From the NCBI GenBank assembly GCA_036505175.1, contig DASXTV010000049.1, positions 33,110-97,109 on the forward strand: DNA of 64,000 nucleotides, written 5' to 3'. Numbering within the stretch: position 1 is the first letter of the stretch; the number at the start of each line of letters is the position of its first letter. A program made the position numbers and the translations under genes. Shown here piece after piece: positions 39,220-62,930 of this stretch. Source of the stretch: Gemmatimonadales bacterium. GTDB taxonomy: Bacteria > Gemmatimonadota > Gemmatimonadetes > Gemmatimonadales > GWC2-71-9. The notes beneath the pieces were generated by a model that worked only from the letters and a program-made list of their open reading frames with translations, ran no database searches and had not been told where the DNA came from.

Positions 39220-41628
39220 ATGCGAGACATCCCAACCTACGATCCGGCTGCGCTCGAAGCAAAGTGGCAGGCCCATTGGGCTGAGCGGCGCACTAACGAG
39301 CCCGACCTCGACGGCGCCAAGCGGCCCTTCTACAACCTCATGATGTTTCCGTATCCCTCGGCCGAGGGGTTGCACGTCGGCAACATGTTCGCGTTCACGG
39401 GCGCCGACATCTACGGTCGCTTCAAGCGGCTCCAGGGCTTCGACGTGTTCGAGCCGATGGGGTTCGACGCCTTCGGCATCCATTCCGAGAATTACGCGCT
39501 CAATATCGGCACCAATCCGGCCAAGCTCATCCCACAGAACATCGCCACATTCCGGCGCCAGCTGCGGCGCTTCGGCGGCATGTTCGACTGGCGCCATGAG
39601 CTCTCGACCACCGATCCCGCTTACTACACGTGGACGCAGTGGCTCTTTCTGCAGCTCTTCAAGGCGGGACTCGCCTACAAGAAGCGCGCGGCGGTGAACT
39701 GGTGTCCCAAGGACAAGACCGTGCTCGCCAACGAGCAGGTCATCGACGGCCGCTGCGAGCGTTGCGACACGCCGGTCGAGCAGCGTTTCCTCGACCAATG
39801 GTTCTTCCGCATCACGAACTACGCGGAGCGCCTCCTCGAGAGCCTCCAGAACCTCGACTGGTCTTCCTCCACCGTCCTGCTGCAGCGGAACTGGATCGGC
39901 CGCAGCGACGGGGCGGAGCTCATCTTCGAGACGCCGAGCGGTAAGAAGATCACGGTCTTCACGACCCGGCCCGATACGGTGTTTGGCGCGACCTATTTGG
40001 TGCTCGCGCCCGAGCACCCACTCGTCGACGAGCTCACCGCCGTCGAGCAGCGGTCGGCCGTCAAGACATATCAGCGGGAGGTGCAGTCCAAGGACATCGT
40101 GTCGCGCCGGGTAGGTGACAAGACGAAGACCGGTGTCTTCATCGGCTCCTATGCCCGAAACCCGGCCACTTCAGAAGCGATCCCGATCTGGATCGCCGAC
40201 TACGTCCTGATGGAGTACGGGACCGGCGCCATCATGGCGGTTCCCGCGCACGACAAGCGGGACTTCGAGTTCGCCACGCAGTTCAAGCTCCCGATCCGCC
40301 AGGTCGTCGCGGTCGAGGGAGAAACGTTGCCGAGTGTGTCCGAGAACGGCGTACTGATGAACTCGGCTGCGTTCGACGGCACGCCGTGCGTCGCAGGCGC
40401 TCGCAAGATCGTCGCATGGCTCTCGAGCCGTGGATTGGCAACCGCGCGGGTGCAGTACCGGCTGCACGACTGGTGCATCTCGCGGCAGCGCTATTGGGGT
40501 CCGCCGATCCCCATCCTCTATTGCGAAAAATGCGGCGTCGTCCCGGTGCCCGAGAAGGATTTGCCGGTCGAGCTGCCACTCATCGAGGATTTTCGTCCCG
40601 ACGACACCGGCGTGAGCCCGCTTGCCCGGCATGAAGAGTGGTACTTCGTGAAGTGCCCCCAGTGCGGCCGCCAGGCGCGCCGCGAGACGGACGTCTCCGA
40701 TACGTTCCTCGATTCGGCGTGGTATCACCTTCGCTACCCGTCGACGGAGTTCCACGACCGGCCGTTCGACGCCGCCCGGACCAAGAAGTGGCTCCCCGTC
40801 AGCAGCTACATCGGCGGGAACGAACACGCCGTACTGCATCTGTTGTATTCGCGCTTCATCTGCATGGTGTTGTCTGACCTCGGCCATCTGCATTTCGACA
40901 CCCCGTACCCGAAATTCCGCGCTCACGGCCTGATCGTGAAGGACGGCGCCAAGATGTCGAAGTCGCGCGGCAACGTGGTCGTTCCAGACACCTACATCCA
41001 GCAGTGGGGCGCGGACACATTCCGGATGTACCTGATGTTCCTCGGGCCTTTCCAGGATGGCGGTGATTTCCGTGATTCAGGAATCGTCGGCCAGCGTAGG
41101 TTTTTGGAGAAAGTATGGGCCTCGGTGCACGAAGCGGCGGCGAGGGGCGGCGAAGGGGCGGCGCCTGACTCCGTCGCGCAGAAGCTTCATCGCACGATCC
41201 GCAAGGTGACTGCGGACACCGAAGCGTTACAGTACAACACCGCGATCGCGGCGATGATGGAGTACGTCAACGAACTGCGGGAGCAAGGAGCCGGGAGCCG
41301 GGAGCTCGTGGAGCCGCTCGTGATCATGCTCGCGCCCTACGCGCCGCACATTGCTGAAGAATTGTGGGACGTCTTAGGCCACCAGGACTCCGTGTTCCAG
41401 GCGCGCTGGCCAGCCTATGACGAGCGCCTCGCTTCGGCAGGCGACGTCGAGATCGCGGTGCAGGTCAACGGCAAGTTGCGCTCGCGCCTCACGGTGCCAC
41501 GCGGCATGGCGGAGAAAGACGTGCTCGCGCGTGTGCTCGCGGATGAGGCGGTGAAGAAGTTTGTCGATGGGCAGAAGGTGAAGAAGGTGATTTACGTGCA
41601 GGACCGGCTGGTGAATCTGGTCGTCTAA
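39220..41628 (+). CDS. leuS: Leucyl-tRNA synthetase
   Basis: 802 aa. Motifs: FPYPSAEGLHVGN (HIGH-type) and KMSKSRGN (KMSKS), plus Zn-knuckle CERCDT/CPQCG segments. Confidence 0.97.
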   Translation: MRDIPTYDPAALEAKWQAHWAERRTNEPDLDGAKRPFYNLMMFPYPSAEGLHVGNMFAFTGADIYGRFKRLQGFDVFEPMGFDAFGIHSENYALNIGTNPAKLIPQNIATFRRQLRRFGGMFDWRHELSTTDPAYYTWTQWLFLQLFKAGLAYKKRAAVNWCPKDKTVLANEQVIDGRCERCDTPVEQRFLDQWFFRITNYAERLLESLQNLDWSSSTVLLQRNWIGRSDGAELIFETPSGKKITVFTTRPDTVFGATYLVLAPEHPLVDELTAVEQRSAVKTYQREVQSKDIVSRRVGDKTKTGVFIGSYARNPATSEAIPIWIADYVLMEYGTGAIMAVPAHDKRDFEFATQFKLPIRQVVAVEGETLPSVSENGVLMNSAAFDGTPCVAGARKIVAWLSSRGLATARVQYRLHDWCISRQRYWGPPIPILYCEKCGVVPVPEKDLPVELPLIEDFRPDDTGVSPLARHEEWYFVKCPQCGRQARRETDVSDTFLDSAWYHLRYPSTEFHDRPFDAARTKKWLPVSSYIGGNEHAVLHLLYSRFICMVLSDLGHLHFDTPYPKFRAHGLIVKDGAKMSKSRGNVVVPDTYIQQWGADTFRMYLMFLGPFQDGGDFRDSGIVGQRRFLEKVWASVHEAAARGGEGAAPDSVAQKLHRTIRKVTADTEALQYNTAIAAMMEYVNELREQGAGSRELVEPLVIMLAPYAPHIAEELWDVLGHQDSVFQARWPAYDERLASAGDVEIAVQVNGKLRSRLTVPRGMAEKDVLARVLADEAVKKFVDGQKVKKVIYVQDRLVNLVV

Positions 41629-42731
41629 AGCGTCTTCGCCACCAGCTCGCCGACAAAGTAACCGACGGCGGCGACCCCGACTCCGATGACAAACATATCG
41701 ATCCCGCTGCGGATTACGCCGCGGCCGGTAAAGAAACTACGCGCCGCTCCCACGATGAAGTGCGACAGCATCGCGATCGTGAACGCCGCCCAGATGGCGG
41801 TGCGACCGTGCAGCAGGAGAAATGGCGCCACCGGGATGAACGCGCCCACCGCCGTCGCCACACCGGTGATCCACCCCTCGCGAAACGGCGTCGCGTGCGC
41901 CTCGCCGATCTTCAGCTCCTCGCGCACCTGTTCGCCGAGCGCGCGCTCCGGGTCGCGCATGACCTCTTCGGCCATGCGGCGCGCGGTGCGAGGGTCGACG
42001 CCCTTCGCCTGATACTGTAGCTCCATCTCTTCCATCTCTATGTCCGGCATCAGGCGAATCTCTTCTTTTTCCATCGCGATCTCGTGCTCCCACACCTCCT
42101 GCTCGCTCTTCGCCGCCAAATAGCCGGACGAGCCCATGGACAACGCGTCCGCGATCATGCCGGCGACGCCCGAGATCATGATCACGTGCGGCTGCACGGC
42201 CGCGCCGATCACACCGGCCACCAGACCGAAGTTCGCCGTCAGCCCGTCGTTGAAGCCGTACACGACGTTGCGCAGAAAGCCGCCCGAGCCCGTCTTGTGC
42301 CACGGCTCGGCGCCTTTGCCCGCCAGATCGGCGAGGGTCCCGGCGTGGGCCGCGGATTCCTTCGCGAGCTGGAGCGAGACCTGCCGCGCGTCGGCGAAGG
42401 TCGATGCCTTGTGGAGATTGAGGTATCCCTTGACCTCCTCACCCTCTTCGCGCAGCAGCATCGGCAGTAAGTAGCGCGTCCCGAAGCGCCGTCCGAACCA
42501 GGCCCGGAGCTTGGCGTTCAGAGACGGCCGCGCGTGATCGACCTCGTGGCCGTGCTGGGCGAGGAGCTTGCTCCACATCTGCACGTGTTTCTCTTCGACG
42601 CCCGCCAGCTTGATGTAGACGTCCTTCCGGTGCGGATCGGATTCCTGGCCGGCGAGCGCGAGGTAGAGGTAGGCCGCGTCCGCTTCATCCTGCCAGTGAT
42701 GGAGCCATTCGTGGACGTCGGGCTTGAGCAT
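41625..42731 (-). CDS. Ferritin-like (erythrin) domain fused to VIT1/CCC1 iron transporter (MbfA-like)
   Basis: 368 aa. The N-terminal four-helix ferritin-like region contains EADAAYLY and EEKHVQMW. The C-terminal VIT1 membrane domain contains NVVYGFNDGLTANFGLV. Confidence 0.82.
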   Translation of the reverse strand: MLKPDVHEWLHHWQDEADAAYLYLALAGQESDPHRKDVYIKLAGVEEKHVQMWSKLLAQHGHEVDHARPSLNAKLRAWFGRRFGTRYLLPMLLREEGEEVKGYLNLHKASTFADARQVSLQLAKESAAHAGTLADLAGKGAEPWHKTGSGGFLRNVVYGFNDGLTANFGLVAGVIGAAVQPHVIMISGVAGMIADALSMGSSGYLAAKSEQEVWEHEIAMEKEEIRLMPDIEMEEMELQYQAKGVDPRTARRMAEEVMRDPERALGEQVREELKIGEAHATPFREGWITGVATAVGAFIPVAPFLLLHGRTAIWAAFTIAMLSHFIVGAARSFFTGRGVIRSGIDMFVIGVGVAAVGYFVGELVAKTL

Positions 42732-42808
42732 CCGGCAAGCTACTACCTCGCAATGCCTTATGTAACCATGCGTTCCCCTAGGACGAATTCGCGACGTTCC
42801 ACGTAGTT

Positions 42809-43360
42809 ATGGCATCATACCTTTCGGACATGACCGTGGCCTTCGCCGTTCCGGACGTCCTCGTCGCCCGCGCGCAAGCCGGAGATGAAGCAGCCCTCGA
42901 AGCCCTGTACCGGGCCTTCGAGACGCCGGTCTACAATCTCGTGCGGCGCATGCTGCGGCGGCCGGAAGATGCGGAGGACGTGCTGCAGGAGACGTTTCTC
43001 GAGGTGGTGCGCAACATCAAGCAGTACCGCGGCGAAGGTCATCTCTGGGGCTGGGTCCGCCGCATCGCCTCGACCAAGGCATTGATGCGGATTCGTCGCG
43101 ATCAGGTGCGGGCGACGGAGTCGCTGGACGACGAGCCGGGAAAGCCAGGGATGCATGTCGGCGCGAACATCGATCTGGAGCGCGCGTTCGATCTGCTTTC
43201 CGAGACGTCGCGGTCGGTGGTGTGGCTGCACGACGTCGAAGGGTACACCCACGAAGAGATTGCGGAGCAGATGGGTAAATCGGTGAGCTTTTCCAAGTCG
43301 CAGCTGGCGCGAGCCCACGCGCGGCTGCGGCGGATGCTCGATGAAGGAGCGAATGCATGA
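42809..43360 (+). CDS. ECF-type RNA polymerase sigma-70 factor
   Basis: 183 aa. Region 2 is EDAEDVLQETFLEV...WGWVRRIA. Region 4 is WLHDVEGYTHEEIAEQMGKSVSFSKSQLARAHARLR. Confidence 0.9.
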   Translation: MASYLSDMTVAFAVPDVLVARAQAGDEAALEALYRAFETPVYNLVRRMLRRPEDAEDVLQETFLEVVRNIKQYRGEGHLWGWVRRIASTKALMRIRRDQVRATESLDDEPGKPGMHVGANIDLERAFDLLSETSRSVVWLHDVEGYTHEEIAEQMGKSVSFSKSQLARAHARLRRMLDEGANA

Positions 43361-43932
43361 TGCACTGCACGATGGAAGATCTGGGAGCCCTGCGGGCAGG
43401 TGAGGCGTCGGTCTGGGCGCGCCGGCACATCGCCACCTGCGCTGCGTGTCAGGCGGAGCTGGAAGCGCTGTACCAGCGAGTCGCGCAGCTCAAGGCGTTG
43501 CCGGCGCTGCGCCCGCCTCGCGACCGCTGGCCCGCCGTGCAGGCGGTGCTGCGCGCCGAGCGCACCCGCCGCCGCCGCACGTGGGGAACGTGGACCGGCA
43601 GTCTCGCCCTCGCCGCCACGATCGCCGCACTCCTGCTGCTCCAGCCGTCGGGCCAGGGCCTCCACGCCGAGCTGAGCCAGGTGAAGCAGCAGTCGGCGAC
43701 GCTCGAAGATTCCCTGCAGCAATACGACATCGACGGCCGCGTGTTGAGCGGTCACGCGGCGGCCCTGGTGGCCGAGCTGGAAGACCGCATTTCGATTCTC
43801 GACGGCACGCTCGCGCAGCAGGAACAGCGCGCACAGGACGCCGAGCTCGTAAAACTCTGGCAGGAGCGCGTCGGACTGATGCGGGAGCTGGTGAACGCCC
43901 ACGTGACGCGCGCTCGCTACATCGGGCTCTAA
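43357..43932 (+). CDS. Anti-sigma factor (zf-HC2) with one TM helix and coiled-coil C-terminus
   Basis: ATGA overlap with the sigma gene. HIATCAAC matches H-x3-C-x2-C. The TM helix is LALAATIAALLLL. Confidence 0.75.
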   Translation: MMHCTMEDLGALRAGEASVWARRHIATCAACQAELEALYQRVAQLKALPALRPPRDRWPAVQAVLRAERTRRRRTWGTWTGSLALAATIAALLLLQPSGQGLHAELSQVKQQSATLEDSLQQYDIDGRVLSGHAAALVAELEDRISILDGTLAQQEQRAQDAELVKLWQERVGLMRELVNAHVTRARYIGL

Positions 43933-43951
43933 GGGCCCGGAGGAGAACTAG

Positions 43952-44923
43952 ATGATTCGCAATTGGACTGTGGCAGTCCTCGCCGTCAGCCTGGCCCTAC
44001 CGGCCGTATCGGCCGCGCAGGCGTCGCCGCGCCGGCCGAGCACGCGACCGCGCGTGCGGGTCGAGACGCAGGGTGGACCGTTCGGTGTGTACGCGTTCGG
44101 CGACAAGCGCGGCCGCATCGGCGTGATCGTGGATCCCAAGGCGAACACCGCGAGCGACAAGATCGGCGCGCGCATCGAAGGGATCACACCGGGCGGACCA
44201 GCTGAGAAGGCGGGCATCAAGGCCGGTGACGTCATCACCCGCTTCAACGGCACGGCGCTCGGTGGATCGGAGTCGGAGGACGACGAGCGGTCAGGGCCGG
44301 GCATGAAGCTGATCGATCTCGCGCATGAGCTGGAGCCCGGCGACACGGTGCAGGTCGAGTACCGCCGCGGCAACGATACGCGGAAGGCGACGCTCGTGGC
44401 TGAAGACCTCGGCGGTGGTGTCTGGACCGGATCGATGGACATGCCCGAGATGGGCAAGTTCAGGGAATTGATGCCCCAGATGGAGATGGGACCGGGCGAG
44501 TTCATGATCGGGGGGGTGTGGGGGGGGATCGAGCTCGTCAAGCTCAACCCCGATCTCGGCGAATACTTCGGCACCCGCGAGGGCGTGCTGGTAGTCCGGG
44601 CGCCGGAAGATTCGTCTTTGACGCTGAAGGGCGGCGACGTCATCATCTCGATTGGTGACCGCAAGCCGACATCACCCGAGCAGGCGATGCGGATCCTCCG
44701 CTCCTACGACGCCGGGGAGACCGTCACGCTCGACGTGCTCCGCAAGCAGAGGCATGTCACCGTGAGCTGGAAGGTCCCGGATCGTGAGACTACGATCTTC
44801 CGCCGGACGCCGCGGATGCATGAGGAGCCGAGCTGGTTCCGGATCGCGCCGAAGATCCGGCAGCAACTCGAGCTGCCGGTCCGGAAGATCAGGGACGTGA
44901 TCCGGACGAGCCGAGCGATCTAA
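43952..44923 (+). CDS. Secreted protein with two PDZ-like domains
   Basis: 323 aa with a signal peptide (AVSLALPAVSAAQA). The segments GITPGGPAEKAGIKAGDVITRFNG and LKGGDVIISIG are PDZ-like. GGAGGAG SD upstream. Confidence 0.7.
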   Translation: MIRNWTVAVLAVSLALPAVSAAQASPRRPSTRPRVRVETQGGPFGVYAFGDKRGRIGVIVDPKANTASDKIGARIEGITPGGPAEKAGIKAGDVITRFNGTALGGSESEDDERSGPGMKLIDLAHELEPGDTVQVEYRRGNDTRKATLVAEDLGGGVWTGSMDMPEMGKFRELMPQMEMGPGEFMIGGVWGGIELVKLNPDLGEYFGTREGVLVVRAPEDSSLTLKGGDVIISIGDRKPTSPEQAMRILRSYDAGETVTLDVLRKQRHVTVSWKVPDRETTIFRRTPRMHEEPSWFRIAPKIRQQLELPVRKIRDVIRTSRAI

Positions 44924-44925
44924 CT

Positions 44926-44990
44926 GTAGGGCGGTAGGAGGCGGTAGGAGGCGGTACCGCCCCCTACCGCCCCTTTACCGCCTCCTACCG
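44926..44990. terminator. Long hairpin built from 10-bp units (GGCGGTAGGA x2, centre GGTACC) between convergent genes
   Basis: GTAGGGCGGTAGGAGGCGGTAGGAGGCGGTA|CCGCCCCCTACCGCCCCTTTACCGCCTCCTACCG read directly. The inner ~17 bp pair with one mismatch. The right arm covers the stop codon of the M14 gene. Confidence 0.6.
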
Positions 44991-47672
44991 ATTCGGCCCT
45001 ATCAGTATCGCATTCGTCAGCAGCTTCGCCGGTCCCCGCCAGAACGCCCTGAATAACGGATCACTCAGAAACAGCACGACCCTGCCGGAGCCTTGATTCT
45101 CAACCGCCGCCCACGTCGTCCCCTTCAGCAGCCGGGCGGTGTTGTCGGGCCATGTAAAGCCCGAAAGCACCAGGGAGTCTACCGGATCAGTGAACGTGAC
45201 GGCGTTGGCTCCGGCTTTGGATGGGCGCCAGAACGTGTCGCCGTCGATGAATACCGGCATCCGGTTGCGATCGTATCCCAGCGTTAACCAGTGGGTGGTG
45301 TCGAGCGTCGCCCGGAAGATCGCGCCCGGGATCCACTCCGGCCGATCACGCGCCGGCGCGGTGCTCGAGATCAAGGCGGGCTCGTTTCCGGCGACAGTCG
45401 TGTCGGCTTTCGCGCCGCTGTCGGGCGCGACGCTCGCGATGCTCGATAACCCCACGTCCTTGAGTGCGGCGAGGTCTCCCGCGCCGCCGTAGCCGATCAG
45501 CACGCTGCCAGAGCGTACCCACGCCTTCAGCCTTTCGACGCCATCATCGCCCAGCTCGCGACGCATCCGGCTGCCGCTACCATCGGGGACGATGATCACG
45601 TTGAAAGTGTGGAGGTCATTCATGCGCCCGATCGCGCGGAGCGGTACAGGGGTGAACGCGACGTTGAGCTCACGAGCGAGGTAGTACCAGAGCCAGCCGT
45701 AACTCGTCTCTGAAATACCATCGCCGGCGGCCACCAGGATCTTGGGAGCGTGCAGTCCCCCGACATCTTCGGAGCCGATTCCGGCATCCCCCGTGTCGGG
45801 AAACGCCGTCTGCAACGTGAAAACGGGGACGCCCATGGCAGGCCCCAACGCCGCGATCCGCTCATGCAGACTCGCGGGGTTGCGTTGCGCGCGCGCGACG
45901 AACGAGCCGCGCGGATAGGTGCGACCGCCGCTGAGGATCGGTTGCCGCGTGACCGCGAGCTTGAAGTCTTCGGCTTCGAGCGCGAGCGCGAGCCGGGCCG
46001 CCCCCGGCCTGTCGTTGGTGAAGACGTAGGCACTGGCACCGCGCGCCGGCGCGGCGGGAGGCGGCACGATCGAGTCGGTGACCGGGTCCCCGGCGGGGCC
46101 GGCATCCTCAGTCCAATACGCATCGAGATTGAACGACAACGGCAGCGACCACGCCGTGATGTCGTAGAAGCCGTAGTCCTCCTTCTCGGCATCTTCGCCG
46201 CGGCGCCGGTTCCGCTGGAACTTCCCGATCTCCCGCTGGACGAACGACCGCTCCATGCTCGGCTGCGGTTCGAGGATGGCCTTGGCGATTCGCCGCTGCG
46301 GCTGGTTCAGGTCGATCACGTAGCTGCCGGCAGGAAAGGTTCTCGCCGTCGCCGTCGTGCCCGGGCTGATGTAGGCGTGCGCGACACGCGAGGGCAACGG
46401 CTGGCGCAGGCGCGTGACCTCGATCCCGTTTCGGAGCAGCAAGCCGACCACGTGCGCCGCCGACTGCGGGTCGCTGCCCGGCACGATCACGACGCGTTTC
46501 ATGCGATCGGTCGCCGCTTCCGCCATCGCCGAGTGGCGGAACTCATAGTAGTCCTGCAGGCGGCTCTGCCGGTTCTTCTCCGTCGTCTCCAGCGTGGCCA
46601 GGGAAGCCACGAAGTGGTGTGAGATGCCGTCGCGGAAGGTGGTGATACTGCCGTCGTCGCGGCGCTTGCGGAATTCAGGCCCGCCGTCGGTCTCGTATGT
46701 CATGCCGGTGGCGCCCTGAAACGTGGTCCATTCGTCCCAATAGCCGACGTAGAAGAAGTCGAATACTCCGCCCACGTAATACTGCCAGCCATACCGGTCG
46801 AACGCCGCGGCGTTGCCGCGGCCATACGTCGCGAACCACTTGGTCGTCTGCGGGGGCAGGTTCATGTTCACCGCCTGCGCGACCGGTGGGAAGAAGAACG
46901 ACGATGTCGTCGAGTGATGGTCCACGAACACCTGGGGGCGCCAGCGCAGGATGCCGTCCATCATCGCGCGAACTTCCGGCTGGCTCTGGGCGAGCAAGTC
47001 GCGATTCATGTCGAAGCGGTAGTGGCTGTAGCGGCCGGTGATGCTCCAGGGCTCATTCTGTTCGAAGGCCCAGGGATGATCCGCGCCGATGCCGACGGAG
47101 TTGTACCAGGCGGCGAAGCGCTCATGTCCATCGGGATTGGCCGATGGGTTGAGCACCACGACCACCGACTTCAGGATCTCGAGGGTCTGCGGCTCGTCCG
47201 ACGCCGCGAGCTGATAGGCGACCTGCATGGCGGCCTCGAATCCCGCCGGTTCGTCCCCGTGGACGGAGTACTGGAACACCGCGACGGCCGGGCTCTGCGC
47301 GGCGATCGCCGCGGCGCGCGCGGCCGACGTCTTGCGCGGATCTGCCAGCTCGGCGAGACCCGCGCGGATTTGATCGAGCTTGGCGAGGTTCGCGGGATCG
47401 GAAATGATCAACGCCCGGATGGGCCGGTACTCGCTCGTGCGTCCCCAAGTCTCGATCCGCACACGGTCGCTCGCAGTGGCGACCAAGGTGTCGAGATAGT
47501 GCTGCATCACTGCGTACATGGTGTGCTGGTCGCCGGCCGGGTAACCGGTGATCGCCTCGGGGCGTGGGACGGTCGGGCGATAGGGGCCGCGGGAGTAGAA
47601 GTCGAAGGGTTCCTGGGAGGCGAGGGGCGATCCCAGAGACAGTACGTACAACGCAACGAGAATCGGGCGCAT
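44985..47672 (-). CDS. Large secreted M14-family zinc carboxypeptidase-like protein
   Basis: The start was re-set to ATG 47672 (MRPILVALYVLSLGSPLASQ). The track start at 47714 lies inside the REP palindrome. VHGDEPAG matches the HxxE zinc motif of M14. Confidence 0.82.
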   Translation of the reverse strand: MRPILVALYVLSLGSPLASQEPFDFYSRGPYRPTVPRPEAITGYPAGDQHTMYAVMQHYLDTLVATASDRVRIETWGRTSEYRPIRALIISDPANLAKLDQIRAGLAELADPRKTSAARAAAIAAQSPAVAVFQYSVHGDEPAGFEAAMQVAYQLAASDEPQTLEILKSVVVVLNPSANPDGHERFAAWYNSVGIGADHPWAFEQNEPWSITGRYSHYRFDMNRDLLAQSQPEVRAMMDGILRWRPQVFVDHHSTTSSFFFPPVAQAVNMNLPPQTTKWFATYGRGNAAAFDRYGWQYYVGGVFDFFYVGYWDEWTTFQGATGMTYETDGGPEFRKRRDDGSITTFRDGISHHFVASLATLETTEKNRQSRLQDYYEFRHSAMAEAATDRMKRVVIVPGSDPQSAAHVVGLLLRNGIEVTRLRQPLPSRVAHAYISPGTTATARTFPAGSYVIDLNQPQRRIAKAILEPQPSMERSFVQREIGKFQRNRRRGEDAEKEDYGFYDITAWSLPLSFNLDAYWTEDAGPAGDPVTDSIVPPPAAPARGASAYVFTNDRPGAARLALALEAEDFKLAVTRQPILSGGRTYPRGSFVARAQRNPASLHERIAALGPAMGVPVFTLQTAFPDTGDAGIGSEDVGGLHAPKILVAAGDGISETSYGWLWYYLARELNVAFTPVPLRAIGRMNDLHTFNVIIVPDGSGSRMRRELGDDGVERLKAWVRSGSVLIGYGGAGDLAALKDVGLSSIASVAPDSGAKADTTVAGNEPALISSTAPARDRPEWIPGAIFRATLDTTHWLTLGYDRNRMPVFIDGDTFWRPSKAGANAVTFTDPVDSLVLSGFTWPDNTARLLKGTTWAAVENQGSGRVVLFLSDPLFRAFWRGPAKLLTNAILIGPNR

Positions 47673-47699
47673 GGATGTACCGGATGTGAGTTCATAGGA

Positions 47700-47727
47700 G
47701 TAGGGGCGCAGCATGCTGCGCCCCTAC
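47700..47727. repeat. 28-bp GTAG palindrome, copy 3
   Basis: An exact copy, read directly, between the stop of the hybrid kinase gene and the start of the M14 gene (both on the minus strand). Confidence 0.85.
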
Positions 47728-47746
47728 GCGACAATCGACCGTTCGA

Positions 47747-49666
47747 CTACGCCCGGCGGCGCGCCGCCGGCAATGCCTGGTCGAAAGAAGCGAACTCGAA
47801 TGGCTTGGGGACGCAAGGCCGGCCGGTCCCATCGAGGAACCGGCGCATTTGCTCGTTCACGAGGTCACCCGTCGTGAAGATCACGCGCTCGGCATGGCCG
47901 GGGTCGTTGCTGCGGAGCCGCTCGAAGAGCTGCTCGCCGGAGAGGTCCGGCATGCGCATATCCACGATCACCGCGTCGTATTTCGATCCCTTGAGACGAA
48001 CGAGGGCATCCTCGCCGCTCGCGGTCGTCTCGACCTCGTGTCCCTTACCGGCGAGATAGCGCTGCAGCGACACGCGGACCGAGGCCTCGTCGTCCACCAC
48101 CAACACGCGCAGGCGGTCGCTCCCGACCGTCTGGACGTGTTCAATGGTCGCGTGCTCTCCAGCGCTCCGCGGCGCGGTGATCGGGACCTCGACCACGAAG
48201 CGGGCGCCGCCCTGGGGCGGATTCTCGGCCCAGATCCGGCCCTCGTGCTCACGCACGATCCCCAGCGAGATCGAGAGTCCCAGACCCGTCCCCGAACCGG
48301 TCGGCTTGGTCGTGAAGAAGGGGTTGAAGATGCGCTCGATCAGGTTCGGCGGAATGCCGCTCCCGGAGTCCTCGACTTCAATCCGGATCGCGTCGCCACT
48401 GCGTCGCGTGCGCACGGTCAGCCGATGATGTTGCCCTTCCTTCTGCTCCATCGCCTGCTCGGCATTGGTGATGAGGTTCAGGAACACCTGCTGTAGCTGG
48501 TGTGCGTCGGCCATCGTGTCCGGTAGCGAGTCGTCGTATTCGCGGCGGACGTCGATGCCGCGCACGCGGAGCTCGTACCCGCGCAGCTCGAGCGTGTCGT
48601 CGAGCACCTGGTTGATCGCGGTGGGGACCTTCTCGGCCTTATGCTGGCGCGCAAAGGTGAGCAAGTTCTGGACGATGCGGCTCGCGCGGCGCGCCTCGCT
48701 GTAAATCGTTTCCGCCGCCGTCCGCTGATCGGGCGGAAACCGCTTCTCTGCGAGCAGGAGCTGGGCGAACGCCGAGATGCCGGCGAGCGGATTGTTGAGC
48801 TCGTGCGCGACGCCCGAAACCAGCTGTCCAATCGCCGACATTTTTTCCGACTGTATGAGCTGCTCCTGCAGCATCTTTTGATCGGTGACGTCGCGAATGA
48901 GGCACAGCACCTCCTCGTCTTTCTGCGGCGTCGAGTACGTGATCGAGATGGTGCGGACCTCGCCGTCTTTGCGATAGAACTGCGATTCGAACAACCCCGT
49001 CTCACCGGCGAGCGCCTGCTGGAAGTGCCCCAGCGCCCGCGGGAGGTCGTCGTCGTGGAGCATGGGGGCGAACCACTGGCCCACCAGCTCGTCGCGCTTA
49101 TAGCCGGAGATGTTCTCGGCGGCATGGTTCACGGTGGTGAAACGGCCGTTGGCATCCAGCGTGACAATCGCGTCGGAGGCCGACTCCACGAGGTGACGGT
49201 AGCGAGCCTCGGAGCGGGCCAGGGTGTCCTGGGCGCGCTTGGGGTCGGTGATATCGCGAAGGACGGCGACCGTGCCGATGATCTCGTCGTGCATCCGGAA
49301 CGGGCCGCTCGAGACCGAGACATCCCGCTCTTCACCGGTGCGGTGATTGACGATCCGCGTCTCGTACCGCTGCGTTTCGCCGCCCAAGACGCGGTCTTCG
49401 CGTGAGGCGACGTGCGCCCGCTCGCCGGGGGACAGGTTGTCGGCGATTGCCTGGCCGACGATTTCGCCCACCTGCCAGCCCAGCATTTCCGCGCCGACGT
49501 CGTTTACCGCGAGCACCCGCCGATCTGCGCCCGTGACGACGACGGCATCCGGTAGCGCGGCGACGATGTCGGCTGCTGCCTGCAGCAAGTCCACCCGCGG
49601 ACTCTTGCCTGCCGCAGTGCTTGCCCCAGCCGTCCGGGTCGGCGAGATGCGACGAGTTTTAGTCAC
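47747..49666 (-). CDS. PAS-PAS hybrid sensor histidine kinase with C-terminal receiver
   Basis: 639 aa with two PAS-like segments. Features: H-box SGVAHELNNPLAGI, HATPase N/G boxes (LNLITNA, DSGSGIP, GTGLGLS), and REC (RVLVVDDE...VIVDMRMPDLSG). The GTG start overlaps the upstream stop (GTGA). Confidence 0.9.
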   Translation of the reverse strand: MTKTRRISPTRTAGASTAAGKSPRVDLLQAAADIVAALPDAVVVTGADRRVLAVNDVGAEMLGWQVGEIVGQAIADNLSPGERAHVASREDRVLGGETQRYETRIVNHRTGEERDVSVSSGPFRMHDEIIGTVAVLRDITDPKRAQDTLARSEARYRHLVESASDAIVTLDANGRFTTVNHAAENISGYKRDELVGQWFAPMLHDDDLPRALGHFQQALAGETGLFESQFYRKDGEVRTISITYSTPQKDEEVLCLIRDVTDQKMLQEQLIQSEKMSAIGQLVSGVAHELNNPLAGISAFAQLLLAEKRFPPDQRTAAETIYSEARRASRIVQNLLTFARQHKAEKVPTAINQVLDDTLELRGYELRVRGIDVRREYDDSLPDTMADAHQLQQVFLNLITNAEQAMEQKEGQHHRLTVRTRRSGDAIRIEVEDSGSGIPPNLIERIFNPFFTTKPTGSGTGLGLSISLGIVREHEGRIWAENPPQGGARFVVEVPITAPRSAGEHATIEHVQTVGSDRLRVLVVDDEASVRVSLQRYLAGKGHEVETTASGEDALVRLKGSKYDAVIVDMRMPDLSGEQLFERLRSNDPGHAERVIFTTGDLVNEQMRRFLDGTGRPCVPKPFEFASFDQALPAARRRA

Positions 49667-50340
49667 GCGTGATAAGACGCCTCCATGGAGAAGCGCATCA
49701 GCTCGAGGCTTTCCAGGGCGGACTGGGTGACTTGCTCGGGACTATCGCTGCCCCGTTTCACGCAATCCTTGATGATCTCGAGCGCATGGATCGGATGCTC
49801 ATCGTCGTACTTGGCATGCTCCTCGAGCCACCAGCGGCCGCGCGGGCCGATTTTCTCGTTCTTGGCGAGTCCTCGCAGGGCCTTTTCGGAAATCTTCTGC
49901 GCGACGCCTTCGACGGCATAATTGGTGGCGGAGACCGCCTGGCCAAACTCCGCGTTGCGGCACATGTCGGTCAGGTAGGCGTGGAACTTCTTGACCTCCG
50001 GAAGCATCGGCTCCGGTTCCTGGAACCGTTTCTTATGCACGTTGAAGCCGTCCCCCATGGCCCGCCACATCGCGTCGTGCCGGCGCTCGACGCGAATGTT
50101 ATCCGTGAAAAACTCCCGGCCCATCGCCGGTGAGCGATCCAGCAGCATCTGCAGCCACTGCGGGAAGTCTCGGATAATAGGATAGAACGCGACGAGAAAG
50201 TTCTGGATCTGGCCGTCGACCAGTTGATTCTCGGACGCGTCGATGATGACCGGCGTATCGAGGATCGCCTGACGGCGGGGCTCCAGCGTCGTATCGAGTT
50301 CCGCTACCCAGGACGGGTGCGGGGTGATTTCGACTGCCAT
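49663..50340 (-). CDS. Heme-oxygenase-like fold (PqqC/TenA/CADD-type) iron-containing redox enzyme family protein
   Basis: The start was re-set to ATG 50340 (MAVEITPHPSW...), giving 225 aa. Candidate di-iron ligand pattern: VERRH (ExxH), YAVEG, and EEHAKYDDEH (HxxxDxxH). Confidence 0.7.
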   Translation of the reverse strand: MAVEITPHPSWVAELDTTLEPRRQAILDTPVIIDASENQLVDGQIQNFLVAFYPIIRDFPQWLQMLLDRSPAMGREFFTDNIRVERRHDAMWRAMGDGFNVHKKRFQEPEPMLPEVKKFHAYLTDMCRNAEFGQAVSATNYAVEGVAQKISEKALRGLAKNEKIGPRGRWWLEEHAKYDDEHPIHALEIIKDCVKRGSDSPEQVTQSALESLELMRFSMEASYHA

Positions 50341-50466
50341 TGCAGCTCCTCTCACGGGCGCGGCGTGCGTTACTAGGGGTGCAGCGTGGCCTGAATGTAC
50401 GGGTGAGCGTCGAACATGCAAGCTTAAGTCGGATAGTGACTTGGCGCACAGCGCGAAAATGGTGTC

Positions 50467-50496
50467 TTGACAAGATATATCGTTCAAGAATATCGT
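50467..50496 (+). promoter_or_regulatory. Candidate padR promoter/operator: TTGACA-17 nt-ATATCG with direct repeat CAAGATATATCG / CAAGAATATCG
   Basis: Read by eye in the 182-bp divergent intergenic region. There is no experimental support. Confidence 0.3.
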
Positions 50497-50522
50497 GGCG
50501 TAACATCTCACAAGAGGCCAAG

Positions 50523-51062
50523 ATGGGCAGGAAGTTCGGCTGGGAAGGCTTTTGGGGTTTCCGGGGCGGTCGAGCGTGGAGGGGGGGAAGGCGGCAGTGG
50601 TTCGGCGCCGGCGACATGAAGTACGTGATTCTGAAGCTGGTGCGGGATAAGCCACGTCATGGATACGAAGTCATGAAGGAGTTGGAGGAGCGCATGCACG
50701 GCTGCTACTCGCCGTCGCCGGGCACCGTGTATCCGACGTTGCAGTGGCTCGAGGATGAAGGACTCGTCGTCGCGCGGGACGTGGAAGGCAAGAAGGTTTA
50801 CGAAATCACCGACACAGGACGGACTTTTTTGGACGAGCACAAGGACATCGTCGAAGACATCTTCGATCGCGTGACCGAAACCGTCGAGCGCACCGTGGGT
50901 GGCTCGATGGTCGAGGTGAACCGGGCGTTAGGCCAGCTCGTGAAGACGGTCTATCGTACCGGCTGGAAGGCCGAGAGTGATGCCGCGCGCAAGCGCGTCG
51001 CCGAGGCGCTCGCGAAGGCTACGGCGGAGATTGAAGCGCTAGCGACCTCGTCGGTCGCGTAA
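50523..51062 (+). CDS. PadR-family transcriptional regulator with Gly/Arg/Trp-rich N-terminal extension
   Basis: The start was re-set to ATG 50523. The winged-helix segment is KYVILKLVRDKPRHGYEVMKELEERMHGCYSPSPGTVYPTLQWLEDEGLV. Confidence 0.85.
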   Translation: MGRKFGWEGFWGFRGGRAWRGGRRQWFGAGDMKYVILKLVRDKPRHGYEVMKELEERMHGCYSPSPGTVYPTLQWLEDEGLVVARDVEGKKVYEITDTGRTFLDEHKDIVEDIFDRVTETVERTVGGSMVEVNRALGQLVKTVYRTGWKAESDAARKRVAEALAKATAEIEALATSSVA

Positions 51063-52031
51063 TTCCTCGATGGCCCGCGTCACGTAGACGCGGGTCATCT
51101 GCTTTCTCCACGACAAATCAAAGTCGGTGTTGTCCATCGGCTTCGAAGGACGGTAGGCCGCTTCAGCGGCAGCGGCGATGGACTCGTCCGAGAGCGGCGC
51201 TCCTGTGAGCGCCGCACCCGCCTCCACAATCTCCTGCGGATGGCTTGCGACTCCACCCAACACGATGCGGGCGTCCGAGACGTTCGTGCCGTTCCACTGA
51301 ATCCATGCCGCCACGCCGAGGACCGGGAAATCGAAGGAACCGCGGCGCCGCAGCTTGTGGTAGACCGCGTCCCAGCCGTTCGGACCGGGAAGACGGACGT
51401 CTACCAGAATCTCATCGGGTTGCTTCGTGAGATAATTGATCCCGTCGTTGTGATAAAACCTGCCGGCGGGGACCACGCGCTCGCCCTGCGGCCCAACGAG
51501 CCGATACTCCGCACCGATCGCCACCATCACCGGCGCGACGTCGGACGAGCTCACCGCCCAGCAGCGCGGCGACGACGGCGCCACCCAGCAGATCTTGCCG
51601 TCTTTCTTCATGCAGAAGTCGATGGACTTCCGCCACTCGTAGCTCTGATTGTAGTAATTGCAGCGCGTGTCGAGACACAGGTTGCCGCCGAGGGTGCCCA
51701 TGTTGCGGAGCAGCGGGGTAGAGACAACGCGGGCGGCGGTACCGACGGCGGATCGCCGGATTGTCGGATGGTCGGATAGCTTCGTCAACGTCACGCCAGC
51801 TCCGAACACCATTCGATCCGCCGATCCGCCGATCCGACCATCCGTCATAAGCTCGGGGATCGCCATCAGCGAGATGACGGTCTTCGGCTCCTGGTGTCGG
51901 CGCTTCATGTTGGGATACAGGTCAGTGCCGCCGGCGACGAACATCCCGTCGGGGCCGGCGTCGGCCTTCATGCGAACGGCTTCGCTGAGCGTGCGCGGCT
52001 GCAGATACGTGAAGCTGGGAAGGCGCAGCAT
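51039..52031 (-). CDS. FAD-binding subunit of a xanthine-dehydrogenase-family molybdoenzyme, with a Cys-rich insertion (HcrB-like)
   Basis: 330 aa. AGGTDLYPNMK is the FAD-binding motif. The insertion CNYYNQSYEWRKSIDFCMKKDGKICWVAPSSPRC has spacing C124-x15-C140-x7-C148-x8-C157. Confidence 0.85.
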   Translation of the reverse strand: MLRLPSFTYLQPRTLSEAVRMKADAGPDGMFVAGGTDLYPNMKRRHQEPKTVISLMAIPELMTDGRIGGSADRMVFGAGVTLTKLSDHPTIRRSAVGTAARVVSTPLLRNMGTLGGNLCLDTRCNYYNQSYEWRKSIDFCMKKDGKICWVAPSSPRCWAVSSSDVAPVMVAIGAEYRLVGPQGERVVPAGRFYHNDGINYLTKQPDEILVDVRLPGPNGWDAVYHKLRRRGSFDFPVLGVAAWIQWNGTNVSDARIVLGGVASHPQEIVEAGAALTGAPLSDESIAAAAEAAYRPSKPMDNTDFDLSWRKQMTRVYVTRAIEELRDRRGR

Positions 52032-60498: not shown

Positions 60499-61326
60499 TC
60501 ATCGGCCCACCCAGCGCCGGATCTTCTCGAGCGCGACGCGCAGGCTCATCGGCTTCACCATGTAGTCCATCGCGCCCGCCTCGAGCCCGCGCAGCTGCTC
60601 CGTCTCGCTGCCGTGCACCGTCGTGAACACGACGCGAAATTTTCCCGGGCACTCCTGTTGCAGCTCTTCGAAGATGGAATAGCCGTCGAGTGCGGGAAGA
60701 TCGATATCGAGCAGCAGCAGCGGAGGCTGCGGGCTGCCGTGCGTGTCCATCGTCTTGAGCAGGTCCAACGCCTCGCGGCCGTTGCGAAAATGGAGGAACC
60801 GATAGCCCCGCGCTTCGAGGCCGAACGTGAGCAGCTCGGCAAGCGCGGGATCGTCCTCGACAACAATTACTTCGGGGACCTCGGAAGCACCGGGTGCGTC
60901 GGAGGTTGGTGGAGGTTGGTCGAGGTTGGTGGAGGTTGGTGGAGGTTCGAGCGCGAGCGCGGTGGGCGTAGGTGCCGCTTGCTTCGTGAACAAGGCCGCT
61001 GCCAGCCGCCGCACGAAGCTCCGTGCAGCCTGACCCCGACCCAGGACGCCGTTCGCTGGCTTCTCCAGCCACTGCTTAGCCGCTTCTTCGAGCTCGGCGG
61101 CGACGACGGACGCTTGCGGGAATCCGAACGATCCGGCAGAGCCACGCAGACGATGAGCATCGCGGCGCAGCGCTTCGATTGCAGCCGTGTCGTCGCCCGC
61201 GGCGATCAGCCGTTCGGCCAGCTCTGCGATCGCCCCCAACTGATCGCGGGCTCCTTTGAGGTACTCGTCGCGGACTCCGGGTGGTAGCCCGAAGTCGTCG
61301 ACTCCTCCTGGGCTCACGGGCTCCAA
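60499..61326 (-). CDS. Hpt (histidine phosphotransfer) - Pro/Thr linker - receiver domain protein
   Basis: 275 aa. The Hpt motif is DAHRLRGSAGSFG. REC: VIVVEDDPALAELL...LLLLDIDLPALDG...MVKP. The start is a TTG at 61326, with GTG 61317 as an alternative. Confidence 0.8.
   Translation of the reverse strand: MEPVSPGGVDDFGLPPGVRDEYLKGARDQLGAIAELAERLIAAGDDTAAIEALRRDAHRLRGSAGSFGFPQASVVAAELEEAAKQWLEKPANGVLGRGQAARSFVRRLAAALFTKQAAPTPTALALEPPPTSTNLDQPPPTSDAPGASEVPEVIVVEDDPALAELLTFGLEARGYRFLHFRNGREALDLLKTMDTHGSPQPPLLLLDIDLPALDGYSIFEELQQECPGKFRVVFTTVHGSETEQLRGLEAGAMDYMVKPMSLRVALEKIRRWVGR
60901..60947. repeat. 10-bp tandem repeat GGAGGTTGGT x4.7 inside the Hpt-REC linker coding region
   Basis: ggaggttggt ggaggttggt cgaggttggt ggaggttggt ggaggtt read directly. 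It encodes PPPTSTNLDQPPPTS on the minus strand. Confidence 0.9.
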
Positions 61327-61937: not shown

Positions 61938-62930
61938 GTGCATGCTCGTCTTGTGCTCAGTTGTGACGCGTCTCACTTGCAGATTGCCTACCGGTCGCTC
62001 ACTTTGGTGCCCGACGCGCTCTATCTCCTTAGCGGAAAGGATTTTGTGACTCAGCGGTTTGTGTTGAAGTACTTCGAGCGCATCCTCGTGCTTCTGCTCG
62101 TTGCTTCCATGTTCGTCATCAATTCCTTGATCGAGCAGAAGTTTGCGTTTCTCAGCTTCTATTATCTGCCGATCATCCTGGCGGGGTTTTACGGTGGCCG
62201 GCGTTTTGCCGTAGGGTCCGGGCTGTTCGTTGTCATGCTCGTCCTCTACTTCCAGACGACTCAAGGGATGGGGATGGAAGAGGGGCTGACCCAGGACGCG
62301 TTGTTGACGCTGGTCCCGTGGGGTGGCTTTCTGATCCTGACCGGCTACGTGGTCGGTGGGCTCGCCGAGCAGCGCGCGGCCCGGCTGGCGGACCTGAAGA
62401 ATGCCTATCTGGCGACGTTGGAAGTGCTCACCTTCCACATCGAATCTGCCGAGAGCAATCAGGAGGGCCACTCGACGCGCGTCGCCGAGCTGGCGGCGGC
62501 GATGGGCGTCGAATTGAAGCTGTCCGAGGGCGAGCTGGAGAACCTCCGCATCGGGGCACTGCTCCACGAAGTGGGGACCGCCGATCAACGGCTGCTCAGA
62601 CTGCTGTCGCGGTCCGTCACCGACGAGTCGCTGGCGGTCGCGCGCGCGCTGCGAGGGGCCGCCGAGATCATCGCCGAGTACTCGCACTACTACGAGATCG
62701 TGGGCGACGACTGGGATATCGAAGCGCTGCCGATGGCGATCACGGTGAAGGTGCTGGCGGTCGCCGATGCGTTCGAGACGCTGCAGATGGCGACGCCGGT
62801 GCGGCCGGCGTTTACGCGCTGGAGCGCGTTGGAAGAGGTCGAAAAGGGCGCCGGGAAAACGTTCGCGCGCGAAGCGGTGCGCGCGTTACGGGTCGTTGCG
62901 GGACGTCCTGAGGCGCTGCGCGCTAGCTAG
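61938..62930 (+). CDS. Membrane-anchored HD-GYP-like domain protein with degenerate catalytic motifs
   Basis: The N-terminal ~130 aa contain TM helices. GHSTRVAELAAAMG and RIGALLHEVG (HE in place of HD) are followed by no GYP motif (HYYEIVGDDWD). LAVADAFETL resembles the family's ADxxDA segment. The start is uncertain. Confidence 0.7.
   Translation: MHARLVLSCDASHLQIAYRSLTLVPDALYLLSGKDFVTQRFVLKYFERILVLLLVASMFVINSLIEQKFAFLSFYYLPIILAGFYGGRRFAVGSGLFVVMLVLYFQTTQGMGMEEGLTQDALLTLVPWGGFLILTGYVVGGLAEQRAARLADLKNAYLATLEVLTFHIESAESNQEGHSTRVAELAAAMGVELKLSEGELENLRIGALLHEVGTADQRLLRLLSRSVTDESLAVARALRGAAEIIAEYSHYYEIVGDDWDIEALPMAITVKVLAVADAFETLQMATPVRPAFTRWSALEEVEKGAGKTFAREAVRALRVVAGRPEALRAS

Follow-up and report, generated by a model that had tools for sequence, protein, structure and literature searches.

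A locus in the genome of a Gemmatimonadales bacterium (GenBank assembly GCA_036505175.1, contig DASXTV010000049.1, positions 33,110 to 97,109) raises the question of why the gene for a small oxygenase-like protein should overlap the start codon of a sensor kinase gene. The whole stretch of 64,000 nucleotides is called the window below, and coordinates refer to it unless another locus is named. The upstream gene (49663-50340, minus strand) encodes a protein of 225 amino acids, assigned by homology to the UndA-like branch of the heme-oxygenase-like di-metal oxidases/oxygenases (HDOs). The downstream gene (47747-49666, minus strand) encodes a soluble hybrid histidine kinase of 639 amino acids. 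The pairing of the two genes is not due to chance, and it is tentatively read as a signalling unit of two genes, with the HDO as the possible dedicated input module of the kinase.

An earlier note on this DNA, made without database searches, had described the 225-aa protein as a heme-oxygenase-like protein of the di-iron type, and profile, structure and fold comparisons all bear this out. The Pfam family PF14518 (Haem_oxygenas_2) matches the protein with 60.7 bits against a gathering cut-off of 28.9 (E = 2e-16). The closest solved structures by sequence, found with phmmer, are UndA and the UndA homolog of Pseudomonas syringae (E = 2e-13), and the second best is the 4-aminobenzoate synthase CADD/CT610 (E about 1e-5). 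A structure predicted with AlphaFold2 from an alignment of 33 orthologs is all-helical (pLDDT 93.8, pTM 0.91). Foldseek comparison of this model with the PDB returned UndA (4wwj, 6p5q; TM-score 0.85) and CADD (8va9; TM-score 0.84) at the top, and TenA and PqqC proteins ranked behind them. The homologs are 222-226 aa long, which favours the ATG of the 225-aa frame over the start of a longer open reading frame of 330 aa. A ribosome-binding site GAGGAG (50346-50351, minus strand) precedes this ATG with a 5-nt spacer, and an AGAGGAG block at this place is conserved in an alignment of 79 orthologous spacers.

The pattern of three histidines and three carboxylates (3H/3C) expected of a di-metal site consists of E85, H88, E144, H175, D179 and H182, arranged as E85-x2-H88, E144 and H175-x3-D179-x2-H182. 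In the phmmer alignments, E85/H88, E144 and H175/D179/H182 fall on UndA residues E101/H104, E159 and H194/D198/H201, and they fall on the ligands of CADD too; the deposited UndA chain is numbered +2 relative to the UndA residue numbers used here. E101, H104, E159, H194 and H201 are metal ligands of UndA. D198 of UndA is a metal ligand as well (PMC7848743). All six HDO residues are invariant in the 33 orthologs, and likewise in 25 relatives from a clade of PilZ-fused proteins treated below. They sit in the predicted helices 72-98, 132-158 and 165-196 of the AlphaFold2 model, so that the ExxH, E and HxxxDxxH residues singled out in the earlier note do map to the metal-binding core helices. A 3H/3C ligand motif on the core helices alpha-1 to alpha-3 defines the HDO superfamily according to a 2026 review (PMC13108848). 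The protein has the fold, the ligand motif and the profile match of this superfamily and is a member of it. By homology it is a bona fide HDO of the UndA-like branch, its predicted di-metal site is intact, and metal binding and O2 activation are predicted.

UndA, the 1-undecene synthase of Pseudomonas and the first of the heme-oxygenase-like di-iron oxidases, is a decarboxylase that forms 1-alkenes from C10-C14 fatty acids, and it is the best match in both sequence and fold. Besides the six ligands, the two proteins share the invariant residues P9, W11, N81, R83, W92, Y141, W171 and Y178, and both belong to the 3H/3C class that has no extra auxiliary-helix Glu as in the N-oxygenases. Unlike UndA, the protein in the window is shorter by about 35 residues, its identity to UndA in the structural alignment is about 21-22%, and no link to a kinase is known for UndA. 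The HDO is nearest to UndA but is not demonstrably an UndA ortholog. In UndA, V65 and F68 on the auxiliary helix alpha-2 touch the alkyl chain of the substrate (PMC7848743). The conserved residues I56 and F59 of the HDO align to them, which is a weak hint at a hydrophobic carboxylate ligand, given that it concerns two positions only at an overall identity of about 22%.

Several other identities were considered and rejected. CADD (Chlamydia CT610, and NePabS) has the same fold and the same 3H/3C ligands as the HDO. Its sacrificial residues are Tyr27 and Lys152 (PMC13108848). Unlike in CADD, these positions are occupied by Ile32 and Ala154 in the HDO, and the profile TIGR04305 gives 29 bits against a cut-off of 200, so the protein is not a self-sacrificing 4-aminobenzoate synthase of this kind. 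In the databases, it is labelled PqqC by JGI and "TenA family transcriptional regulator" by one NCBI submitter. The TenA/thiaminase II label was discarded at 17.2 bits for TENA_THI-4 against a cut-off of 22, and the PqqC label was discarded with no PqqC family among the NCBIfam matches and no pqq genes nearby; neither the TenA nor the PqqC proteins have the 3H/3C site. It is not a canonical heme oxygenase either, as it matches PF14518 and not the canonical heme oxygenase family. Neither member of the gene pair matches H-NOX, NosP or heme-binding families in Pfam and NCBIfam.

The kinase has the architecture PAS-PAS-HisKA-HATPase_c-REC that had been read from its sequence, and all five domains are found with Pfam: PAS at residues 36-143 and 155-260, HisKA at 280-341, HATPase_c at 387-497 and the receiver (REC) domain at 521-630. 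HisKA, HATPase_c and the receiver all score above their cut-offs, as in a hybrid histidine kinase. No transmembrane segment is present, and the ATP-lid motifs and the acidic pocket of the receiver are intact. The H-box (AHELNNP), the G-boxes and the REC residues DD...D...T...K are kept in 73 orthologs, and the protein therefore looks functional and catalytically intact as judged from these motifs. Mean column conservation among the same 73 orthologs is 0.98 for the dimerization and histidine phosphotransfer domain, 0.91 for PAS2, 0.89 for the catalytic ATP-binding domain, 0.84 for REC and 0.75 for PAS1. The sensor region matches only PAS families in Pfam, with neither GAF nor PHY. Among solved structures only generic PAS domains were found for it, with no recognisable class of cofactor or ligand, and the kinase lies far below the cut-off of every NCBIfam equivalog.

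The stop codon of the HDO gene and the start codon of the kinase gene overlap in GTGA (49663-49666; the minus strand reads ...CAC GCG TGA, with GTGA at 49666-49663), as the earlier note had observed. The same junction is found across the orthologous loci of other genomes. It is GTGA in 38 and ATGA in 38 of 80 loci (76/80); two incomplete loci also have the overlap motif, which brings the total to 78, one locus has TGATG, and one differs. The swap between GTG and ATG occurs at the identical codon and confirms this codon as the true start of the kinase. The sole purine-rich stretch before the kinase is a GGAGG located 13 nt from the GTG, within Met-Glu-Ala codons, and it is lost in the ATGA group. 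The kinase gene has no well-spaced Shine-Dalgarno sequence of its own, and termination-reinitiation coupling is therefore the likely mode of its translation. It is predicted that the conserved start/stop overlap leads to a fixed ratio of HDO and kinase.

The 80 loci come from a genome scan with one genome per species (185,579 species), in which 116 relatives were found and the best 80 were kept. All of these best 80 are from metagenome-assembled genomes (MAGs) of Gemmatimonadales/Gemmatimonadota, with identities of 73-94%. In essentially all 80 loci, tblastn recovered the HDO gene, the kinase gene and a divergent PadR regulator gene in the identical arrangement. The adjacency to a kinase is thus not peculiar to this genome. 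The surrounding block is syntenic as well: genes for MoCoBD/CoxM, PadR, HDO-kinase, in part an M14 peptidase, PDZ-antisigma-ECF sigma and VIT1 follow one another in 56-68 of the 80 loci. Since the whole surrounding block is conserved, the pairing inside Gemmatimonadales alone is weak evidence of functional coupling. Every named homolog is a MAG, and no cultured host was found among them.

Two records from this search required separate treatment. One (P0119, 386 aa) appears as a natural fusion of HDO and PAS; the HDO sequence runs from residue 1 to about 193 and continues directly into the kinase from about residue 95 onward. This internal-deletion chimera is known from a single record and is probably an assembly artefact; no direct HDO-kinase fusion was found among 150 cluster representatives. 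The other (P0088) is a homolog named "Candidatus Rokuibacteriota", which was rejected as an instance of spread to another phylum because the gene order of the Gemmatimonadales block is found in full on its contig. A locus likewise binned as Rokuibacteriota (L159, JBOHSV010000128.1) carries the complete block of MoCoBD-CoxM, PadR, HDO-kinase-M14 and PDZ. The L159/P0088 contig is probably mis-binned.

Stronger evidence for coupling came from more distant relatives. When 1.84 billion cluster representatives were searched exhaustively with phmmer, only 190 clusters matched at E <= 1e-3, and this HDO sub-family is therefore small. The members of the Gemmatimonadota clade are at least 61% identical to the HDO. 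The nearest clade beyond it consists of proteins of 365-443 aa with 31-42% (about 37%) identity, named at NCBI as MAGs of Nitrospiraceae and "Deltaproteobacteria". In these proteins the HDO domain is C-terminal and is usually preceded by an N-terminal PilZ domain (PF07238), an architecture without mention in a survey of PilZ proteins (10.1101/814665). In five of five distinct contigs of this sister clade, the next gene on the same strand encodes a kinase of about 960 aa with the architecture HisKA_7TM-GAF-HisKA-HATPase. HisKA_7TM appears in the literature only as a listed, sparsely populated sensor family. A metagenome scan with a profile of the PilZ clade yielded 67 loci, of which 50 could be evaluated with at least 600 nt downstream, and the 7TM-GAF kinase lies directly downstream on the same strand in 47 of them. 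About ten of the sister-clade metagenome loci encode no PilZ domain and still retain the kinase. The neighbourhoods otherwise differ among the contigs of this clade and are unrelated to the Gemmatimonadales block. One of the three loci without a downstream kinase (L141, 1364-4418) has instead a convergent gene for an FHA-domain protein and a gene for a single-domain response regulator beside PilZ-HDO, so that signalling genes surround the HDO there too.

Kinases make up about 1-2% of bacterial genes. Fewer than one such adjacency per 50 loci would be expected by chance, against the 47 observed, and the HDO-kinase pairing is accordingly not a chance one. Judged from the sequences compared, the order of HDO then kinase is clade-defining and has long been maintained, and it appears to have survived the replacement of the sensor architecture of the kinase. 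Whether it arose once or twice, its persistence across clades of about 37% identity with different kinases argues for functional coupling. The association has a boundary, marked by standalone distant relatives with no kinase neighbour in any of four cases (P0158, P0160, P0167 and P0169). P0158 is neighboured by ATP-grasp, FGE-sulfatase and MFS genes, P0160 by polysaccharide genes, and P0169 by a zf-PARP protein gene. P0167, which is 37% identical to the HDO, is encoded at L155 5001-5687 and overlaps a TetR-family gene (5665-6405) by 23 nt.

A subset of the PilZ-clade operons contains further signalling genes, in the order PilZ-HDO, 7TM-GAF kinase, REC-sigma54 activator and REC-HD-GYP (L083 7001-14016; also L088, L089, L091, L093-L097, L136 and L143). 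The presence of a receptor domain for cyclic di-GMP (c-di-GMP) and a kinase-controlled phosphodiesterase in a single operon suggests a feedback loop, and output into c-di-GMP turnover is a recurring theme around the HDO clade.

Among the readings of this pairing, the one considered most probable, and still held tentatively, is that the two genes constitute one signalling unit and that the HDO acts as the dedicated input module of the kinase, a co-sensor or "trigger enzyme". The HDO would bind Fe(II), or possibly Fe/Mn, and its reaction with O2 would probably, as in the UndA-type 3H/3C HDOs, require a bound carboxylate-type ligand. Ligation of the substrate to Fe1 is the trigger for O2 activation in 3H/3C HDOs like UndA (PMC13108848). 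The state of the HDO, whether apo, Fe(II)-loaded, substrate-bound or oxidised, would be read by direct contact with the kinase, and autophosphorylation would be switched. HDO cofactors are labile, and the core helix alpha-3, which holds three of the ligands, folds and unfolds with metal loading (PMC7848743); the state of the HDO could thus be a conformational signal to the kinase. The phosphoryl group would pass from the kinase to its own REC domain and on to some Hpt protein or response regulator. In the sister clade, the N-terminal PilZ or PilZ-like domain would add control by c-di-GMP or by an adaptor. The pair would then be a heme-free counterpart of H-NOX/HnoK and NosP/NahK. A role as input is favoured by the position of the HDO gene upstream of the kinase gene, as with the genes of accessory sensors: hnoX, nosP and bphO lie upstream of their kinases (PMC8738867, PMC6769237, PMC6932827). 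More doubtful is the bolder proposal that the HDO fold was recruited as a heme-free receptor for O2, Fe(II) or a carboxylate ligand which docks on kinases and gates them, and that the PilZ clade integrates c-di-GMP in a loop with a kinase-controlled HD-GYP phosphodiesterase.

A number of observations weigh against an input module that is read by contact. The HDOs characterised so far are all enzymes of metabolism or biosynthesis (PMC13108848), and this speaks for a catalytic role; the retained UndA-like pocket residues fit a real substrate. Translational coupling is not universal: in the PilZ clade, 0-408 nt separate the HDO and kinase genes (median about 210). Between the two clades, the kinase cores share only 30-34% identity, so that a common docking surface is not apparent, and the idea of a common kinase core as the docking surface was dropped at this unremarkable level of identity. 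Nor did any residue specific to the kinase-linked HDO clades stand out among the 35 positions invariant in both, most of which are also found in UndA and the standalone relatives. Finally, both c-di-GMP motifs (RxxxR and [D/N]xSxxG, with correct spacing) are intact in only 9 of 25 PilZ domains, taken from the N-terminal 170 residues or so of P0140 and 24 relatives; the rest are degenerate or escape the Pfam model, and the N-terminal PilZ-like domain may often be a plain adaptor. In an alternative reading, the HDO makes or breaks the ligand of the kinase, following the logic of bphO-bphP. The HDO would oxidise a small carboxylate, for example a fatty-acid-like one, and the substrate or product would bind PAS2 of the kinase or, in the sister clade, the 7TM-GAF module, the kinase reporting the O2- and Fe-dependent turnover of the metabolite. 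This is possible but on the doubtful side. The six catalytic ligands and the alkyl-contact positions of UndA are retained, all known HDOs are enzymes, PAS2 is better conserved than PAS1 (0.91 vs 0.75) as expected of a ligand pocket, and a hydrophobic product would suit a membrane-embedded 7TM sensor. A precedent is given by the heme oxygenase BphO, whose gene shares an operon with that of BphP and whose product is the chromophore of this kinase (PMC6932827, PMC5654926). However, the sensor modules (PAS-PAS vs 7TM-GAF) are unrelated although the pocket residues of the HDO are the same in both clades, and two kinases without a common sensor domain are awkward if both must bind the same diffusible product. 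Moreover, the PAS domains could be placed in no recognisable cofactor or ligand class, the pair is accompanied by no further conserved genes for biosynthesis or transport, and a catalyst and its receptor are not usually tied by strict 1:1 translational coupling. The co-sensor reading is preferred over the ligand reading because of the lack of a shared sensor domain in the kinases, the 1:1 coupling, and the typical role of PilZ as an adaptor.

PilZ fusions typically put an enzyme or machine under the control of c-di-GMP, as in BcsA and YcgR. With such fusions common in the sister clade, and with other relatives coupled to transcription factors, such as the HDO that overlaps a TetR gene, the HDO might itself be a regulated effector, an enzyme whose activity or level is set by the kinase in Gemmatimonadales or by c-di-GMP through PilZ in the sister clade, rather than the source of the signal. 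This is improbable: outputs normally run through a response regulator and are not usually encoded upstream of a kinase and translationally coupled to it, the Gemmatimonadales unit includes no DNA-binding response regulator, and PilZ, which is often degenerate, is dispensable while the kinase is kept. Least probable of all is that the two are operon mates with no functional coupling, with an HDO that is an unrelated oxidative enzyme and an adjacency that is inherited synteny. The synteny of the whole block in 56-68 of 80 Gemmatimonadales loci would agree with it. Yet the order recurs in a clade of about 37% identity, in other phyla, in unrelated neighbourhoods and with a different kinase (47/50 loci), the start/stop overlap has been maintained through a change of start codon, and the PqqC and TenA labels that would supply such an enzyme fail on profile scores and on the 3H/3C site.

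The HDO-kinase unit, preferably read as a sensor input and its kinase, resembles three known kinds of system. In bphO-bphP, as here, one operon holds the gene for a small O2-dependent helical enzyme of the heme oxygenase fold class and, directly after it, that for a cytoplasmic histidine kinase, and BphO supplies the signal-perceiving cofactor of BphP (PMC6932827, PMC5654926). Unlike the HDO, BphO is a true heme-degrading oxygenase and not a 3H/3C di-metal protein, and BphP has a PAS-GAF-PHY core and a biliverdin-binding Cys whereas the kinase in the window has two generic PAS domains. The likeness is an analogy of logic and not homology. In the H-NOX/HnoK and NosP/NahK systems, a small sensor encoded beside the kinase regulates it through direct contact of the two proteins; many of these kinases are hybrid and lead via an Hpt relay into c-di-GMP enzymes (PMC8738867, PMC6769237). 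The co-cistronic HDO and kinase genes correspond to this arrangement, and the REC-HD-GYP genes in the PilZ-clade operons parallel the c-di-GMP output. The HDO-kinase pair may work like these systems without being a member of them: H-NOX and NosP are heme sensors of unrelated folds, while the site of the HDO would be a non-heme di-iron one. The third kind is that of the c-di-GMP receptors and adaptors of the PilZ family, to which the sister clade is similar in its N-terminal PF07238 domain with motifs intact in part of the proteins, and from which the HDO in the window differs in having no PilZ domain.

The earlier note had stated that no described system pairs a small O2- or iron-dependent enzyme with a sensor kinase in this way. 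This holds for the HDOs, but it overlooked the bphO-bphP and H-NOX/NosP-kinase operons, which are functional analogues and not homologues. Full-text literature searches found no paper that joins an HDO with a histidine kinase. The 2026 HDO review makes no mention of a kinase, sensor, signal or PadR (PMC13108848), and no paper citing PF14518 addresses an HDO-kinase link. The HDO superfamily counts over 10,000 members, and to date natural-product and cofactor chemistry is all that they are known for (PMC13108848). What is new here is a known enzyme fold in a signalling context, and through a clade nearly always linked to histidine kinases the superfamily would gain a role in signalling. The HDO would supply an input for soluble PAS-PAS hybrid kinases and for HisKA_7TM-GAF kinases, and the pairing points to an undescribed route by which an oxygen-, iron- or metabolite-dependent signal is fed into two-component signalling. 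In soil bacteria, a labile, O2-reactive di-iron cofactor could plausibly report on oxygen, iron or redox state. If the receptor proposal were true, the HDOs would form a new class of bacterial gas or metal sensors beside H-NOX, NosP, FixL-type PAS-heme and hemerythrin, and an HDO would for the first time have a role outside biosynthesis.

The third gene of the locus encodes a PadR-family regulator of 179 aa (50523-51062, plus strand; PF03551, 78.8 bits against a cut-off of 27), and it is divergent from the HDO gene across a 182-bp spacer, as had been noted. A scan of 47500-51300 revealed a sole sigma-70-like site, the PadR promoter TTGACA-18 nt-TATCGT (50467-50496, plus strand; 10 of 12 positions), which is conserved in the orthologs. 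The direct-repeat, operator-like motif that the earlier note had placed in this spacer is real. The repeats GATATATCGT (50474-50483) and GAATATCGTG (50488-50497) form a candidate PadR-type operator (50474-50497), and they are conserved in the 79 aligned spacers with the consensus CACGATAT-N5-CACGATATATCGTG; a perfect palindrome of 14 bp lies within this consensus. The pattern occurs once, with no further copy in the window. The motif lies, however, in the promoter of PadR itself and travels with PadR. In the most divergent locus of the Gemmatimonadota type (L087 4132-6681; HDO 61% and kinase 60% identical), two genes for DoxX membrane proteins stand between PadR and the HDO, and the operator motif stays at the PadR promoter, 1.2 kb from the HDO. 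Because the operator moves with PadR in this locus and overlaps the PadR promoter, it is best read as a site of PadR autoregulation.

On the other side of the spacer, a candidate promoter of the HDO-kinase unit (50394-50421, minus strand) consists of a -35 element TTGCAT (50416-50421), a 16-nt spacer and a -10 element TACATT (50394-50399). Its score in the consensus scan is under the threshold, and its TTG and GTACAT are at least 95% conserved in the 79 spacers. Between the divergent -35 elements lies a 10-bp box, GTGACTTGGC (50436-50445), about 50-58 nt upstream of the inferred transcription start of the HDO gene, of which GCCAAGTCAC is conserved in the 79-spacer alignment. The box GTGACTTGGC has no second exact copy in the window and is absent upstream of the HDO gene in L087. 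PadR is followed by a terminator-like hairpin found by scanning (51069-51099, plus strand; 13 paired bases, 9 of them G-C).

The earlier note had also raised the question of whether the HDO family recurs beside both kinases and PadR regulators. The adjacency to a kinase does recur, but that to PadR is conserved no better than that of unrelated neighbours in the syntenic block, and PadR is not present in the PilZ-clade loci that were looked up. PadR is best read, from this conservation and from the position of the operator, as an autoregulated neighbour whose link to the HDO-kinase unit is weaker than the link between HDO and kinase. It is similar to other autoregulated repressors of the PadR family in its PF03551 winged-helix domain and in the palindromic operator overlapping its own promoter. 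It is unlike them in an unusual N-terminal tail (50523-50615, plus strand), which is rich in Gly, Arg, Trp and Phe (MGRKFGWEGFWGFRGGRAWRGGRRQWFGAGD) and varies in length among the orthologs by insertions.

As a possible downstream partner of the kinase, an Hpt-REC protein encoded about 11 kb away had been proposed. The gene exists (60499-61326, minus strand; 275 aa, with Pfam Hpt at residues 20-84 and Response_reg at 153-269) at about 10-11 kb from the kinase gene, and proximity is the only connection between the two. Hpt-REC is thus a possible relay partner of the hybrid kinase. A gene for an HD_5 (HD-GYP-like) protein (61938-62930, plus strand) adjoins that of Hpt-REC and parallels the REC-HD-GYP genes in the PilZ-clade operons.

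A search of 47-52 kb of the window with Rfam found nothing. In the region downstream of the kinase (41625-47714), an M14 carboxypeptidase gene on the same strand starts 32 nt after the kinase stop codon; it is present only in the closer genomes of the 80. Beyond it, a convergent operon for ECF sigma, anti-sigma and PDZ proteins is followed by the gene for a VIT1 iron/manganese transporter, and most of the 80 genomes share the synteny of this ECF-PDZ-VIT1 part. The G+C content is slightly lowered, at 0.59-0.61, over the 5' half of the HDO gene, the spacer and PadR (50000-51000), and about 0.65 in the flanks.

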